Below are positions 17,825-60,016 of a DNA stretch of 64,000 bases, one piece after another. The translations under genes and the position numbers were made by a program. Each line of letters starts with the position of its first letter. Within the stretch, counting starts at the first letter, position 1. This DNA comes from Flaccisagitta enflata (Eukaryota), in the NCBI GenBank assembly GCA_965153355.1, contig OZ231126.1, forward strand, positions 15,438,001-15,502,000. Reading direction: 5' to 3'. Under the pieces are notes generated by a model. That model saw only the letters and a program-made list of their open reading frames with translations, made no database searches and was not told the DNA's origin.

Positions 17825-18097
17825 TCTTTTGTTTGAAGAACCGCATTTGTGAAAGTGTAGGGTAATACCCCTAAGCCTAAGCTCTTGCAGTGAAACGATC
17901 TTTTGCTCATGAAACTATCACAGCTAGATCTTGATGCGTGAAAATGTTTCTGTGCGTCTTGTCATCCATACATTTGAATTTCTGCCTTTTTTGTTTCCTC
18001 TATGTCATCTATTCTGCTTCCCAGTCTGTCATATGCTTTCATTTACTTTGACTATGTACCATCTTGGCCATAAATATAAGCACAGCTTTAAAGTGTC

Positions 18098-18940
18098 ATG
18101 ATAGGTGGAACAACATCCCTCACTATACCCAAACTGAAATAAATGGAAGAGGGCCTTGTGAGCCCTCACTGACTAGTTACTACGCGCATCACTCCTAGTT
18201 TTCCATAAAACAGAATTTGATAAACATTTCCTCTCACTCTAACCCAAAAGAAAACTCCTCACCAAAATAGTTAAGGGCCAATGTCTGCTACCTTTGTTAC
18301 CAGAATTCAACAAATCACCCGAGGGTAACATTGTTAAGAAACCATACCCTTAAAGGATAGAATCGAGGTCAAGCTTACTGCGACCGCCGGACATTCCAAT
18401 CCAAGGTACTGAGTAGTATGATAGGTGGAACAACATCCCTCACTATACCCAAACTGAAATAAATGGAAGAGGGCCTTGTGAGCCCTCACTGACTAGTTAC
18501 TACGCGCATCACTCCTAGTTTTCCATAAAACAGAATTTGATAAACATTTCCTCTCACTCTAACCCAAAAGAAAACTCCTCACCAAAATAGTTAAGGGCCA
18601 ATGTCTGCTACCTTTGTTACCAGAATTCAACAAATCACCCGAGGGTAACATTGTTAAGAAACCATACCCTTAAAGGATAGAATCGAGGTCAAGCTTACTG
18701 CGACCGCCGGACATTCCAATCCAAGGTACTGAGTAGTATGATAGGTGGAACAACATCCCTCACTATACCCAAACTGAAATAAATGGAAGAGGGCCTTGTG
18801 AGCCCTCACTGACTAGTTACTACGCGCATCACTCCTAGTTTTCCATAAAACAGAATTTGATAAACATTTCCTCTCACTCTAACCCAAAAGAAAACTCCTC
18901 ACCAAAATAGTTAAGGGCCAATGTCTGCTACCTTTGTTAC
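18098..18940 (-). repeat. Tandem array, 320-bp unit, about 2.6 apparently identical copies, each with a twister-like ribozyme on the - strand
   Basis: ATGATAGGTGGAAC recurs at 18098, 18418 and 18738. Confidence 0.95.
18143..18206 (-). ncRNA. Type-P5 twister-like self-cleaving ribozyme (further copies at 18463-18526 and 18783-18846)
   Basis: - strand reads ATGGAA(P5) AA CTAG(P2') GA GTG(T1') ATGCGCGTAG(P1) TAA CTAG(P2) TC(T2) AGT GAGGG(P4) CT CAC(T1) AA GG(T2') CCCTC(P4') TTCCAT(P5'). Predicted U^A cut between 18179 and 18178. L4 has one extra C versus the usual 8 nt. Confidence 0.7.
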
Positions 18941-19853
18941 TCGCTCAATTTTAATCGCAGAGAGCTGATTTTTTTTCTTCAAAATTTGCATCTTCGAAAA
19001 ATCTATCAAATGAGACCAAGCCGGTTCCTGTATCTTTATTCGTTTAGAAATGACAGTAAAATGAATCAAACATTTGCCTTTTGCAAGTGTGGTTGGGCAG
19101 ATCTTTCTTAGTTTATGGAGAATGGTGCACTGGCACACTGCGCCAAACATACTGAAAGATCGACGAGTTAAGCTCGTCTAGGGTTAGCCCACATCAATTC
19201 GGATCTCAATCCAATTGAGAGTTCAAAGATTCAAGCGAAAAACCTGCAGAAACAGGGAAAAATAACATGCAGAGCAGGGCTGAAATGAATCCCATAAACG
19301 GTTTAAAACAACATCACTTCCAAGGACCTCCAGTGTCTCTACGTGTCAATGCGAAAGTGAATGCAGGCGGTGGTGGATGCCCATCATGGTCATACTAAAT
19401 ATTAGATGCAGTCTGATGTATTTGCTGCTCACTTCAAGTCAATAAATCAACTTACACACCCACTGTGCTTATGGCCAAGATGGTATTTCTCTTTCGCCTC
19501 CTTGTTTTGCCTGATTTTTCGGTTTGTCATCAACATTAGCTCTCGCTTTTAGTAATAAGGTCTGTTCGTTTGCATCTCAATCGATCTGTCTAACTGTAAC
19601 TGTCTATGTCATTGTCTGTCAATCCATCTGTCTGCCTGTTCGTCGATCTCATTTTCCCTCTTCCTCTTCCCTCCAGCCTCATATTTGGAAATCCCGCTCG
19701 GAAATTGCGTCATTTATTCATGGAAATAAACACAAATACTCAAATTCGCACGATCATATTGGGGCAAAATATTCAACGCCAAGCTTTATTTGTAGTAGAA
19801 GAGAAAGACTCCTTTTTTCTCCTATTTCTTTCTCTTTTTCATTGATTCTTTCT

Positions 19854-32494: not shown

Positions 32495-32722
32495 AATGAT
32501 TGACTCATAATGAGAAACAAAAACAAATCAATAATACAAAAGAAATCTTAAAAAAGTTGTTAGAAATTGTTATTTATGTCTTTTTTTTCGAAGCTCTGCG
32601 ACAGAGGGTTTAGGAAACTCACCATAGTCAGCTTTGGGCTGTGTGATATATTCACGGCGATTTACAAAATGAGCTATTGATCATGGTAGTGAGATGAAAA
32701 TAACCAAGTTTGACTCAGCGTA

Positions 32723-34943
32723 CTTACTATGCTGATGTAAAACAAATTGTATATCTCTGCTCATCGCATTCATTAAATAGTTCCTACGTCAGACTCAAAG
32801 CCAGTCACAGACTGGGGTATCTGCTAGGACACCAATGAAGTATCCAATGGAACAAATCATCAGCCTCTAGTAAGTCAGCCTTCATGGTCTAATGGTTAGA
32901 ACACTTGCCTTCAGAAATGAGGGTCAAGGGTTCGAATCCAGGATGGGCATGAAGGTAACACAGGAGTTTGAGGGAGCGCTTAAAACGCTGAGTCGGTCCC
33001 AAGCCCGACAACTGTGGTGACTTACTATGCTGATGTAAAACAAATTGTATATCTCTGCTCATCGCATTCATTAAATGGTTCCTACGTCAGACTCAAAGCC
33101 AGTCACAGACTGGGGTATCTGCTAGGACACCAAAAAAGTATCCAATGGAACAAATCATCAGCCTCTAGTAAGTCAGCCTTCATGGTCTAATGGTTAGAAC
33201 ACTTGCCTTCAGAAATGAGGGTCAAGGGTTCAAATCCAGGATGGGCATGAAGGTAACACAGGAGTTTGAGGGAGCGCTTAAAACGCTGAGTCGGTCCCAA
33301 GCCCGACAACTGTGGTGACTTACTATGCTGATGTAAAACAAATTGTATATCTCTGCTCATCGCATTCATTAAATGGTTCCTACGTCAGACTCAAAGCCAG
33401 TCACAGACTGGGGTATCTGCTAGGACACCAATGAAGTATCCAATGGAACAAATTATCAGCCTCTAGTAAGTCAGCCTTCATGGTCTAATGGTTAGAACAC
33501 TTGCCTTCAGAAATGAGGGTCAAGGGTTCAAATCCAGGATGGGCATGAAGGTAACACAGGAGTTTGAGGGAGCGCTTAAAACGCTGAGTCGGTCCCAAGC
33601 CCAACAACTATGGTGACTTACTATGCTGATGTAAAACAAATTGTATATCTCTGCTCATCGCATTCATTAAATGGTTCCTACGTCAGACTCAAAGCCAGTC
33701 ACAGACTGGGGTATCTGCTAGGACACCAAAAAAGTATCCAATGGAACAAATCATCAGCCTCTAGTAAGTCAGCCTTCATGGTCTAATGGTTAGAACACTT
33801 GCCTTCAGAAATGAGGGTCAAGGGTTCGAATCCAGGATGGGCATGAAGGTAACACAGGAGTTTGAGGGAGCGCTTAAAACGCTGAGTCGGTCCCAAGCCC
33901 GACAACTGTGGTGACTTACTATGCTGATGTAAAACAAATTGTATATCTCTGCTCATCGCATTCATTAAATGGTTCCTACGTCAGAATCAAAGCCATTCAC
34001 AGACTGGGGTATCTGCTAGGACACCAATGAAGTATCCAATGGAACAAATCATCAGCCTCTAGTAAGTCAGCCTTCATGGTCTAATGGTTAGAACACTTGC
34101 CTTCAGAAATGAGGGTCAAGGGTTCGAATCCAGGATAGGCATGAAGGTAACACAGGAGTTTGAGGGAGCGCTTAAAACGCTGAGACGGTCCCAAGCCCGA
34201 CAACTGTGGTGACTTACTATGCTGATGTAAAACAAATTGTATATCTCTGCTCATCGCATTCATTAAATGGTTCCTACGTCAGACTCAAAGCCAGTCACAG
34301 ACTGGGGTATCTGCTAGGACACCAATGAAGTATCCAATGGAACAAATCATCAGCCTCTAGTAAGTCAGCCTTCATGGTCTAATGGTTAGAACACTTGCCT
34401 TCAGAAATGAGGGTCAAGGGTTCGAATCCAGGATGGGCATGAAGGTAACACAGGAGTTTGAGGGAGCGCTTAAAACGCTGAGTCGGTCCCAAGCCCGACA
34501 ACTGTGGTGACTTACTATGCTGATGTAAAACAAATTGTATATCTCTGCTCATCGCATTCATTAAATGGTTCCTACGTCAGACTCAAAGCCAGTCACAGAC
34601 TGGGGTATCTGCTAGGACACCAAAAAAGTATCCAATGGAACAAATCATCAGCCTCTAGTAAGTCAGCCTTCATGGTCTAATGGTTAGAACACTTGCCTTC
34701 AGAAATGAGGGTCAAGGGTTCGAATCCAGGATGGGCATGAAGGTAACACAGGAGTTTGAGGGAGCGCTTAAAACGCTGAGTCGGTCCCAAGCCCGACAAC
34801 TGTGGTGACTTACTATGCTGATGTAAAACAAATTGTATATCTCTGCTCATCGCATTCATTAAATGGTTCCTACGTCAGACTCAAAGCCAGTCACAGACTG
34901 GGATATCTGCTAGGACACCAATGAAGTATCCAATGGAACAAAT
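32723..34943 (+). repeat. 298-bp tandem array, block 2 (about 7.4 near-identical units)
   Basis: Exact 298-bp periodicity, also visible as repeated 60-aa pseudo-ORFs in the track. Confidence 0.97.
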
Positions 34944-47295: not shown

Positions 47296-48102
47296 CAGAC
47301 AGTGGACAAAACAAAATAGGTAGAGAGCTCACTCTGTTGGCTTTGATCCAACCTACTGTTATCAAACAGCAGGCTGTAAACAACAACTGGTTGTAAAAAT
47401 TACAGCCGGCTATCATGCTACAAATTTGGCAAAAATCCAACTTTCACCAAATAGAATGAGACCTGCAAATTCATAATCCTGGTGAAATTCTGACAAGTTT
47501 GATATGTAACAACATATACTTTTATATGAAAATAAAAATCTTTTATCAATGTTTGATAAAGTTATAATGCAATGTTAAAAGATTTTTTCTTATAAAAAGT
47601 ATGGTCTTGTAGTAGGAGAGTTAGCGTCCTTTTGTCTTTTGTTTTTAGCGGTCAATCACTTGAAAGCGGGTAACAAGTTAGGGTTAGGGGTAGGGTTAGT
47701 GTTAGGGTTAGGGATAAGGTCAGGGATAGTCTTAGGGATCAGGTTAGGGTTAGGGTTAGGGCTAGTGTTAGGGTTAGGGGTGCTTTAGAGCTTAATATCT
47801 ACTCGCCGATTGAAAGTTTGCTCTGGCGGAATTTTTGGGAAACTCAAGTGCGATACTTCATCTACAAAATGACCAAAAGTATTAAGTGTGACATGTCAAT
47901 ATTCTCAGAATTTCATCAGGATTATGAATATGCAAGTCACGTTCTATTCTATTTAGGTTGGATTTTTGCCAATTTTGTAAGATGACAGCTGGCTGTAATT
48001 TTCACAACCAGTTGTTGTTTACAGCCTGCTGTTTAATAACAGTAGGTTGGATCAAAGCTAACAGAGTGAGCTCTCTACCAATTTTGTTTTGTCCACTGAC
48101 TG
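47296..48102. mobile_element. Foldback MITE with CAG...CTG termini and TTAA TSD (middle element)
   Basis: TTAA|CAGACAGTGGACAAAACAAAAT...ATTTTGTTTTGTCCACTGACTG|TTAA. Confidence 0.85.
47603..47874. mobile_element. Merlin-like MITE carrying degenerate TTAGGG repeats (inner element)
   Basis: 8-bp TSD AAAAGTAT (47595-47602 and 47875-47882). Termini GGTCTTGTAG / CTACAAAATGACC. TTAGGG-like tract at about 47678-47780. Confidence 0.65.

Positions 48103-49147: not shown

Positions 49148-60016
<10,869 letters not shown>

Follow-up and report, generated by a model that had tools for sequence, protein, structure and literature searches.

A twister-like motif of type P5 in a tandemly repeated 320-bp unit of Flaccisagitta enflata, and its possible place in a retrozyme-like repeat family

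Within a stretch of 64,000 nucleotides (nt) of Flaccisagitta enflata DNA (assembly GCA_965153355.1, contig OZ231126.1, forward-strand positions 15,438,001 to 15,502,000; hereafter the window, in whose own numbering all positions are given), a short tandem array of 320-base-pair (bp) units carries on its minus strand a motif that looks like a twister ribozyme of type P5. The locus thus raises the question of whether this motif is a twister, and what such a ribozyme would be doing in a tandem repeat. On the evidence set out below, we regard a genuine twister fold as probable, and with a modest preference we favor the fuller reading in which a divergent twister of type P5 is active and processes the minus-strand transcripts of a repeat family resembling the retrozymes. 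The array and its three copies of the motif are as follows.

18098..18940, minus strand: tandem array of 2.6 identical 320-bp units, 42% G+C
18143..18206, minus strand: twister-like motif, copy 1, 64 nt (exact span 18206..18143)
18463..18526, minus strand: twister-like motif, copy 2, identical to copy 1 and the reference for the public contigs
18783..18846, minus strand: twister-like motif, copy 3, identical

Tandem Repeats Finder describes the array at 18098-18940 with a period of 320, 2.6 copies, 100% matches, no indels, and a score of 1686, and motif copies 2 and 3 are copy 1 offset by +320 and +640. An earlier reading made from the letters alone (the sequence-only reading) had likewise seen three identical copies, and a recent origin of these copies is compatible with their 100% identity. 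Read along the minus strand, the elements of copy 1 can be laid out in this way.

18206-18201 and 18148-18143, minus strand: P5, AUGGAA / UUCCAU, 6 bp
between P5 and P2' in minus-strand order, minus strand: AA
18198-18195, minus strand: P2', CUAG
18194-18193, minus strand: GA
18192-18190, minus strand: T1', GUG
18189-18180, minus strand: P1 segment, AUGCGCGUAG
18179-18177, minus strand: UAA
18179/18178, minus strand: predicted scissile bond U18179/A18178, with equivalents at 18499/18498 and 18819/18818
18176-18173, minus strand: P2, CUAG, 4 bp with P2'
18172-18171, minus strand: T2, UC
18170-18168, minus strand: linker, AGU
18167-18163, minus strand: P4, GAGGG, 5 bp with P4'
18162-18154, minus strand: L4, CU-CAC-AA-GG
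18153-18149, minus strand: P4', CCCUC

Here, both the order of the elements and the conserved nucleotides agree with the Rfam Twister-P5 consensus (cGCA-GAGgG-P1-UAA-UGCg-GC-Aagac-CGG-UCcCAAGC-CCGg). In fact, the motif shares with the type-P5 twisters of RF02684 (clan CL00120) the succession of P2', GA, T1', a closed P1, UAA, P2, T2, P4, an L4 holding T1-AA-T2, P4', and an open P5, as well as the predicted cut between U and A, and its layout agrees with the elements tabulated for natural twisters in PMC8501958. The cleavage-site loop (N/A-A) is represented by the UAA at 18179-18177, which directly precedes the P2 strand CUAG, and the general-base G and its A stand 3' of P2' and are followed by the T1 strand (CUAG-GA-GUG at 18198-18190). 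A script check found all claimed pairs of the motif to be standard, with the 6 bp of P5, 4 bp of P2, 5 bp of P4, and 3 bp of T1 being Watson-Crick, and T2 (UC/GG) consisting of U.G and C-G. The sequence-only reading, which had placed the motif at 18135-18215 (a region that brackets the exact span), therefore stands as regards element order, pairings, and the retained UAA, GA, and AAG core. Its predicted cut at 18179/18178 is also the one that follows from where UAA sits, after the P1 segment and before P2, and twister cleavage is described as falling at the U-A of the UAA loop (PMC8501958, in the part available).

There are several departures from RF02684. The T1 pseudoknot is GUG/CAC rather than GGG/CCC, with its middle pair altered on both sides relative to the Rfam consensus and to a neighboring 298-bp repeat family, and T2 is UC/GG with a U.G pair rather than GC/GC. 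In L4, the final C is replaced by G, and the T2 partner is changed to match. Moreover, L4 is one nucleotide longer than in the Rfam consensus (9 nt instead of 8), with the addition at its 5' side (C or U across copies), which is the atypical extra C that had been remarked on earlier. The P1 is 2-3 bp only around a CGCG loop (2 bp, U-A and G.U, in the copies of the array), and the 5-bp P4 is of another sequence.

Could such a motif arise by chance? We wrote two descriptors from the Rfam type-P5 consensus, and ran them on both strands of the window and on dinucleotide-preserving shuffles. With the relaxed descriptor (3-4 bp in P2 and 3-6 bp in P4, 4-40 nt for the P1 region, a lead of 1-2 nt in L4, and G.U allowed in the pseudoknots), the three array sites were the sole matches on either strand of the window, and 542 shuffles gave 33 sites when P5 was not required and a single one with a P5 of at least 4 bp. 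With the strict descriptor (a P2 of 4 Watson-Crick bp and a P4 of at least 5 bp), all three array sites were matched and nothing else in the window, and 1247 shuffled windows yielded seven sites, none having a P5 of at least 4 bp. A 6-bp P5 within 16 offsets has a probability of 0.0047 at the composition of the window, and by our own arithmetic the strict-shuffle rate multiplied by this value leaves about 2.6e-5 chance matches expected per window. At the scale of the window, the match is far beyond chance. The descriptor supports the claim for one 320-bp unit in one window, but would be insufficient by itself genome-wide.

For comparison, the neighboring 298-bp family also has a twister-like motif, and is represented in the window by two arrays.

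32722..34943, plus strand: tandem array of 298-bp units (comparator), 7.5 copies, with a sub-threshold Twister-P5 match and a tRNA-like segment
28809-29346: second array of 298-bp units, 1.8 copies

The Twister-P5 match of this family reaches 30.4 bits (E 3.4e-4) against a gathering score of 37.6, with two copies at 30.4 bits and a third at 23.3, and the twister is canonical-looking (GAGGG, UAA, GC, UCCCAAGC). The relaxed descriptor is not exhaustive, and missed this twister (bulged U after P2'). Direct reading of the sequence together with the Rfam alignment gave its P5 (CACAG/CUGUG) and P2 (AAC/GUU plus one unpaired U). Element by element, P5 is AUGGAA/UUCCAU in the 320-bp unit and CACAG/CUGUG in the 298-bp unit, P2 is CUAG/CUAG and AAC/GUU (+U), T1 is GUG/CAC and GGG/CCC, T2 is UC/GG and GC/GC, and P4 is GAGGG/CCCUC and GUCGG/CCGAC, respectively, with UAA, GA, and the AA-G of L4 kept in both. 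Local alignment of the two units scored 8 and 11, no better than the averages from 200 shuffles (10.9-12.0), and the best such alignment lies in the twister core. This is in keeping with the sequence-only reading, which saw no primary similarity between the units. That reading had also called the twister covarying. Its list of replacements is correct, but what it compared were two unrelated sequences, which is not covariation within a homologous alignment.

There are nine copies of the 298-bp motif in the window, six identical and three singletons, of which one turns a P4 pair into U.G, whereas in the other two, pairs of P4 and/or P5 are lost. Each 298-bp unit also has, immediately 5' of its twister, a tRNA-like segment with D-arm-like and T-arm-like boxes, for which ARAGORN made no call and Rfam gave only a spurious bxd_1 match. 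By analogy, the layout of this unit resembles that of a short interspersed nuclear element (SINE), as in the schistosome Sm-alpha repeats, which are tandem and combine an RNA polymerase III promoter with a hammerhead (PMC6765202, from its available text), and are the closest analogue of the 298-bp family. They differ from the 320-bp unit, which is without a tRNA-like part (no tRNA genes in the window by ARAGORN and no Rfam tRNA match at E<=10) and whose ribozyme strand has four runs of T>=4 as opposed to one on the plus strand, the several TTTT runs noted earlier being among what was recovered here.

Beyond the three copies of the array, the 64-kb window contains no further copy of the 320-bp unit or of its 110-bp core (blastn at word size 7, and nhmmer). 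Public sequencing runs were searched by words of the array. Among the 24 runs listed, where a share of 0.00 is uninformative, array words were present in 20, from 14 studies, and 15 contained half or more of the words. Two DNA runs of one organism contain 0.77 and 0.65 of them, and most of the other runs with array words are marine, seawater, or estuary metagenomes. Six of the runs, from five studies, are RNA-labelled and contain 0.35-0.55 of the words. Contigs of four runs, X1 (DNA) and X12, X17, and X18 (RNA-labelled), were aligned to one unit (18340-18659) at a likeness of at least 80%. All four are sets of contigs, in which neither strand nor molecule ends are readable, and RNA libraries may contain DNA. 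From X1 alone, 15,405 contigs fell on the 320-base unit, of which 2157 have an identity of at least 99%, 4459 of 95-99%, 6262 of 90-95%, and 2527 of less than 90%. These counts point to a family of great abundance and diversity. Of the diverse and abundant class of twister repeats proposed from the sequence, the abundance of the 320-bp family is borne out and the neighboring family does match Twister-P5, but the latter match is sub-threshold. In each of the three RNA-labelled runs, there are contigs that match the unit and contigs that span the junction between units. The tandem joint 18659>18340, exactly 320 back, occurs in 31 X1, two X12, one X17, and one X18 contigs, and near-320 joints are also present. 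Since unit joints are found in all four runs, together with these near-320 variants, tandem organization is a trait of the family.

The depth of these contigs is uneven along the unit, with two segments standing apart.

18417..18526, minus strand: most abundant core, consisting of the motif and a 46-nt 3' tail (18462..18417), with the depth peak in X1 and X12
18527..18614, minus strand: the stretch of the unit that is rarest and varies most, with the lowest depth

The summed contig depth of 18527-18614 is 5- to 40-fold below that of the core, and in some X1 contigs this segment is skipped or replaced (joints 18526>18584, 18526>18624, and 18532>18629), which suggests subfamilies with shorter units. 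Many X1 contigs lose the match at 18416 (113), 18417 (189), or 18425 (106), where the flanks are heterogeneous and AT-rich, and in minus-strand reading two of the three flank consensuses are A-rich directly after the element end. At the other edge, 18526, 166 X1, 22 X12, and one X18 contigs run into a different, semi-conserved upstream sequence. Because many contigs match the core alone, dispersed copies having only the twister-plus-tail core exist besides the tandem units. The 3' edge of the core recurs in the array itself, which in minus-strand reading begins mid-unit at 18940 and finishes at 18098, the equivalent of the 18417/18418 edge of the core. On the minus strand, the array is fixed at its 3' end and ragged at its 5' end. 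We also sought more copies with a 21-mer of the tail and a 23-mer of the core, each with one IUPAC letter. Neither had a match in metagenome contigs, and the core 23-mer had none in viral contigs or in prokaryote genome contigs. As a separate observation, the tail (18417-18462, minus strand) pairs locally in the minimum free energy (MFE) fold of the unit and stops at the same edge as many of the dispersed copies. A partner reverse transcriptase could use it as its recognition end.

It is here that an alternative must be weighed, namely that the twister is active but end-processes a dispersed retroelement without long terminal repeats (non-LTR) or a SINE, in the manner of the twister variants found at Perere-3 RTE 5' ends, the array being a by-product, for instance of unequal crossing-over or of a chimeric insertion, and not a unit propagated as monomeric or circular RNA. 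The depth peak confined to 18417-18526, the hundreds of X1 contigs that stop at 18416, 18417, or 18425 with A-rich sequence after two of these three ends, and the divergence upstream of 18526 all speak for many copies being dispersed rather than array units, and twisters linked to non-LTR elements are documented (PMC8501958; PMC7761336, both as far as available). Yet the motif of the dispersed copies lies about 110 nt from the 3' end with conserved sequence upstream of it, and not at a 5' end, such that a cut there would part the tail from the body. The exact-320 joints in 31 X1 contigs and the near-320 variants mark the tandem form as belonging to the family. No reverse-transcriptase or other coding open reading frame (ORF) was recognized in the window, the 54 stop-to-stop ORFs of at least 130 amino acids, judged by eye with no search run, all resembling translated microsatellites, and across the 64 kb there is no convincing protein-coding ORF. 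Altogether, we consider end-processing of a dispersed element unlikely, and return to the reading of a twister that processes a retrozyme-like tandem repeat.

How the copies vary bears on whether the motif is a functioning ribozyme. The variant table is a summary in which 40 of 50 rows are listed, and among these rows at least five positions of the 64-nt motif are variable (18471, 18482, 18485, 18500, and 18509), compared with at least six in the 46-nt tail. The listed motif variants fall in P4, the extra L4 nucleotide, and the P1 segment, and none is found in UAA, GA, T1, T2, the AA of L4, P2, or P5, which make up 37 of the 64 positions. That all five listed sites lie within the other 27 positions has a probability of about 0.011 (C(27,5)/C(64,5), our arithmetic), for position classes that were set after the motif was seen. 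At 18482, G>A accounts for 46% of the depth in X1 and 52% in X12, and turns the extra L4 nucleotide from C to U. The variants 18500 C>A (40% in X1, 26% in X12) and 18509 T>C (47% in X1, 21% in X12) lie at the two ends of the P1 segment, at its last and its first nucleotide, respectively. One X17 contig (depth 7.02) differs at 18482, 18500, and 18509 only, and here the A/G mismatch at the base of P1 becomes G.U. More rarely, 18471 G>A (4.4% of X1 depth, in 83 X1 and seven X12 contigs) and 18485 C>T (2.7% of X1 depth, in 73 X1 and six X12 contigs) affect the two sides of the third P4 pair. Jointly, they change G-C to A-U, and 18471 alone leaves G.U. The two variants occur together in a single X18 contig (depth 5.08), and the third P4 pair among copies is thus G-C, G.U, or A-U. 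The pairing-preserving variation on which the sequence-only reading had staked its claim is hence present at one P4 pair, in the form of G-C to A-U.

A number of results weigh against the favored reading, and are best taken together with the second alternative, that the motif is a non-cleaving look-alike or a decayed relic, that the array is an ordinary satellite or a segmental tandem duplication derived from a portion of an abundant repeat, and that the constancy of the core comes from recent amplification of a few masters. Foremost is the outcome of the covariance-model searches, a check that the sequence-only reading had itself proposed and that came out negative. At Rfam 15 gathering scores, there is no match anywhere in the window. 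Within the 1001 bases of 18000-19000, six matches are listed at E<=10 (three DLEU2_3 and three Ocean-VII hairpin) and none is to a twister model. Nor is there a twister match at E<=10 in the 83 bases around the motif, a search in which an 11.3-bit hairpin match had an E of 0.28. The 320-bp motif does not reach the 37.6-bit gathering threshold of RF02684. It scores very low or fails the filters for RF02684 and its clan, and by the curated covariance model, it is no recognizable twister member. Secondly, the MFE of -20.2 kcal/mol belongs to another structure, in which P4 is lengthened to 7 bp, and the nested twister helices amount to -12.2 kcal/mol before pseudoknots. The whole-unit fold of 320 nt is likewise no stabler than that of shuffles (z -0.32). 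Thirdly, about 0.4 matches per gigabase would still arise by chance with the strict descriptor. To these can be added that the array ends at 18098 and 18940 are both away from the predicted cut, with no target-site duplication found around the array (the longest word common to the 40-nt flanks has 5 nt); that the RNA-labelled support rests on contigs from libraries in which DNA is possible; that co-occurrence of variants is established for single contigs only; and that the subfamily structure of a repeat can mimic conservation. In further support of a look-alike are the L4 insertion and T2 wobble, the fact that twister elements were sought in the 320-bp unit after one had been noticed nearby, and the pair-breaking changes in two of the three singletons among the nine 298-bp copies, as such repeats decay.

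What softens the negative result with the models is that the canonical-looking 298-bp twister is also below the gathering score, and for this reason the Rfam model is strict for this minimal-P1 form. Moreover, in a mass test of twisters (PMC11662667, from the text available, as also for what follows from it), a descriptor-plus-model pipeline recovered only 26% of the active P5-bearing twisters. The same test found imperfections in P1, P2, and P4 to be tolerated, along with wobbles in both pseudoknots and changes at L4 positions 1 and 9, whereas A1, A2, and the general-base G were critical, with the L4 AA also among the critical nucleotides. P1 is dispensable (PMC11662667; PMC5408937), and a P1-less twister cleaves at near wild-type rate in the available account of PMC5408937. 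All of these critical nucleotides are retained in the 320-bp motif: the two adenines that follow the cut (A1 and A2), the general-base G, and the AA of L4. It deviates in having a minimal P1, a U.G pair in the 2-bp pseudoknot T2, and an L4 with an added nucleotide on its 5' side. Going by sequence, these are putatively of the tolerated kinds, and about 94% of the natural twisters tried in the mass test were active. Given as well that only about 2.6e-5 strict matches are expected per window, that P4 shows a G-C to A-U double change, and that the five listed variable sites avoid the core, we regard a look-alike or relic as improbable, and a genuine twister in a retrozyme-like repeat remains the explanation we favor.

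If so, the life of the repeat might be pictured as follows. A minus-strand transcript through the array would fold into P2, P4, and P5 and the pseudoknots T1 (GUG/CAC) and T2 (UC/GG), which would set U18179-A18178 beside the general-base G of the GA. The RNA would then cut itself at U18179-A18178 and release 320-nt units that start with a 5'-OH and finish with a 2',3'-cyclic phosphate. Purely on the model of the hammerhead retrozymes, these units would be circularized by tRNA ligase and copied back into DNA by the reverse transcriptase of a retroelement, and rolling copying of one unit would produce arrays of identical units with one fixed and one ragged end. Folding, cleavage, choice of strand, circularization, and retroposition are all steps that we infer. 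The retrozyme-like context fits because a second, unrelated tandem family with a sub-threshold Twister-P5 match of the same permutation is nearby, the size and G+C content of the unit are like those of animal retrozymes, and the unit joints recur.

Among known systems, the animal non-LTR retrozymes and newt or axolotl satellites are low-G+C tandem repeats of 150-450 bp, in dimers to multimers, with a type-I hammerhead (PMC7229834; bioRxiv 10.64898/2026.07.22.740005; in their available parts). The 320-bp family is similar in its low-G+C (42%) tandem unit with one ribozyme motif each, in its high copy number, and in its presence in RNA libraries. It differs in that the motif is twister-like and not a hammerhead (Rfam has no hammerhead match at E<=10 on either strand of the array), and in that circles, unit-length RNAs, and a Penelope-like partner are features of the retrozymes, whereas the 320-bp family is known here from contigs. 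The Perere-3 (RTE) twister T-variants of Schistosoma mansoni, as the accessible text of PMC8501958 describes them, are also twisters of a highly repeated animal family with a weak or unconventional P1. However, they are type-P1 twisters at the 5' end of the element, with the P1 completed by the target-site duplication, while the motif here is of type P5, has a closed P1, and lies inside a tandem unit or, in the dispersed copies, about 110 nt before the 3' end. The hallmarks of the Perere-3 type, a reverse-transcriptase ORF in the window (judged by eye) and a target-site duplication, are absent at the array. A third likeness is to the viroid-like twister circular RNAs of environmental RNA (bioRxiv 10.1101/2022.07.19.500677, from the part available), which have a few hundred nt and one twister in one polarity, and words of the 320-bp unit do occur in marine RNA-labelled runs. 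Those circles are matched by profiles and twister-P1 is the class named, unlike the 320-bp motif, which is in eukaryote genome DNA and has no profile match.

In the literature as far as available to us, retrozymes and newt-type satellites carry hammerheads (PMC7229834; PMC7761336; bioRxiv 10.64898/2026.07.22.740005), the last of these being a preprint from which the word "twister" is absent. Animal twisters are linked there to the 5' ends of RTE elements (PMC8501958; PMC7761336, in the latter as work in preparation), and twisters are found in hundreds of clusters of viroid-like circular RNAs from metatranscriptomes (10.1101/2022.07.19.500677). No twister-bearing tandem repeat or twister retrozyme was found in the full-text literature outside subscription journals and supplements. 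Ribozyme-bearing tandem repeats that live via small circular RNAs are known only with hammerheads. If confirmed, a twister counterpart in a very abundant marine eukaryote would mean that the retrozyme lifestyle is independent of ribozyme class, and would place animal twisters in a second retroelement setting, in addition to the RTE 5' ends. A further implication would be that curated covariance models miss functional twisters with a minimal P1, altered pseudoknots, and a 9-nt L4, and that some marine "viroid-like" twister circles may be transcripts of host repeats.

In both families, the P1 is GC-rich, self-complementary, and almost without a loop. The P1 of the 298-bp unit, AGCGCU (32975-32980, plus strand), is a perfect 6-nt palindrome for which a hairpin is impossible, and the P1 segment of the 320-bp unit at 18180-18189 (minus strand) gives an 8-bp self-duplex of -11.7 kcal/mol, which in the linked G...U variant of 40-47% of copies would grow to 10 bp by hand pairing. 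When cofolded, a pair of 320-type motifs reaches -54.7 kcal/mol as a domain-swapped dimer, compared with -40.4 kcal/mol for two monomers. On these modelled energies, the palindromic P1 may be a dimerization signal. Amphibian hammerhead repeats cleave well only as dimers (PMC7229834), and one could imagine by analogy "twister retrozymes" whose ribozyme works as a pair, such that nascent multimers would cleave efficiently and the finished monomer circle weakly, this weak cleavage protecting the circle, with the units also being a source of the marine "viroid-like" twister circles. As P1-less twisters are active as monomers, we keep this as a minority view of decidedly low probability. Nevertheless, a palindromic P1 in two unrelated families raises the question of whether twisters, like hammerheads, are regulated by dimerization.

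Apart from these families, the window has an extreme load of microsatellites, with 126 rows in the Tandem Repeats Finder output that include (AAAG)354, (TC)n, (TCTC)146, and (TGA)216. A third tandem array at 58780-59723 has three copies with a period of 316 (or half-units of 155 and 161) and 95% matches, and is without a ribozyme match at E<=10 on either strand. Lastly, an interstitial telomere-like run of about 17 degenerate GTTAGG repeats (TTAGGG-type) is located at 47677-47779.

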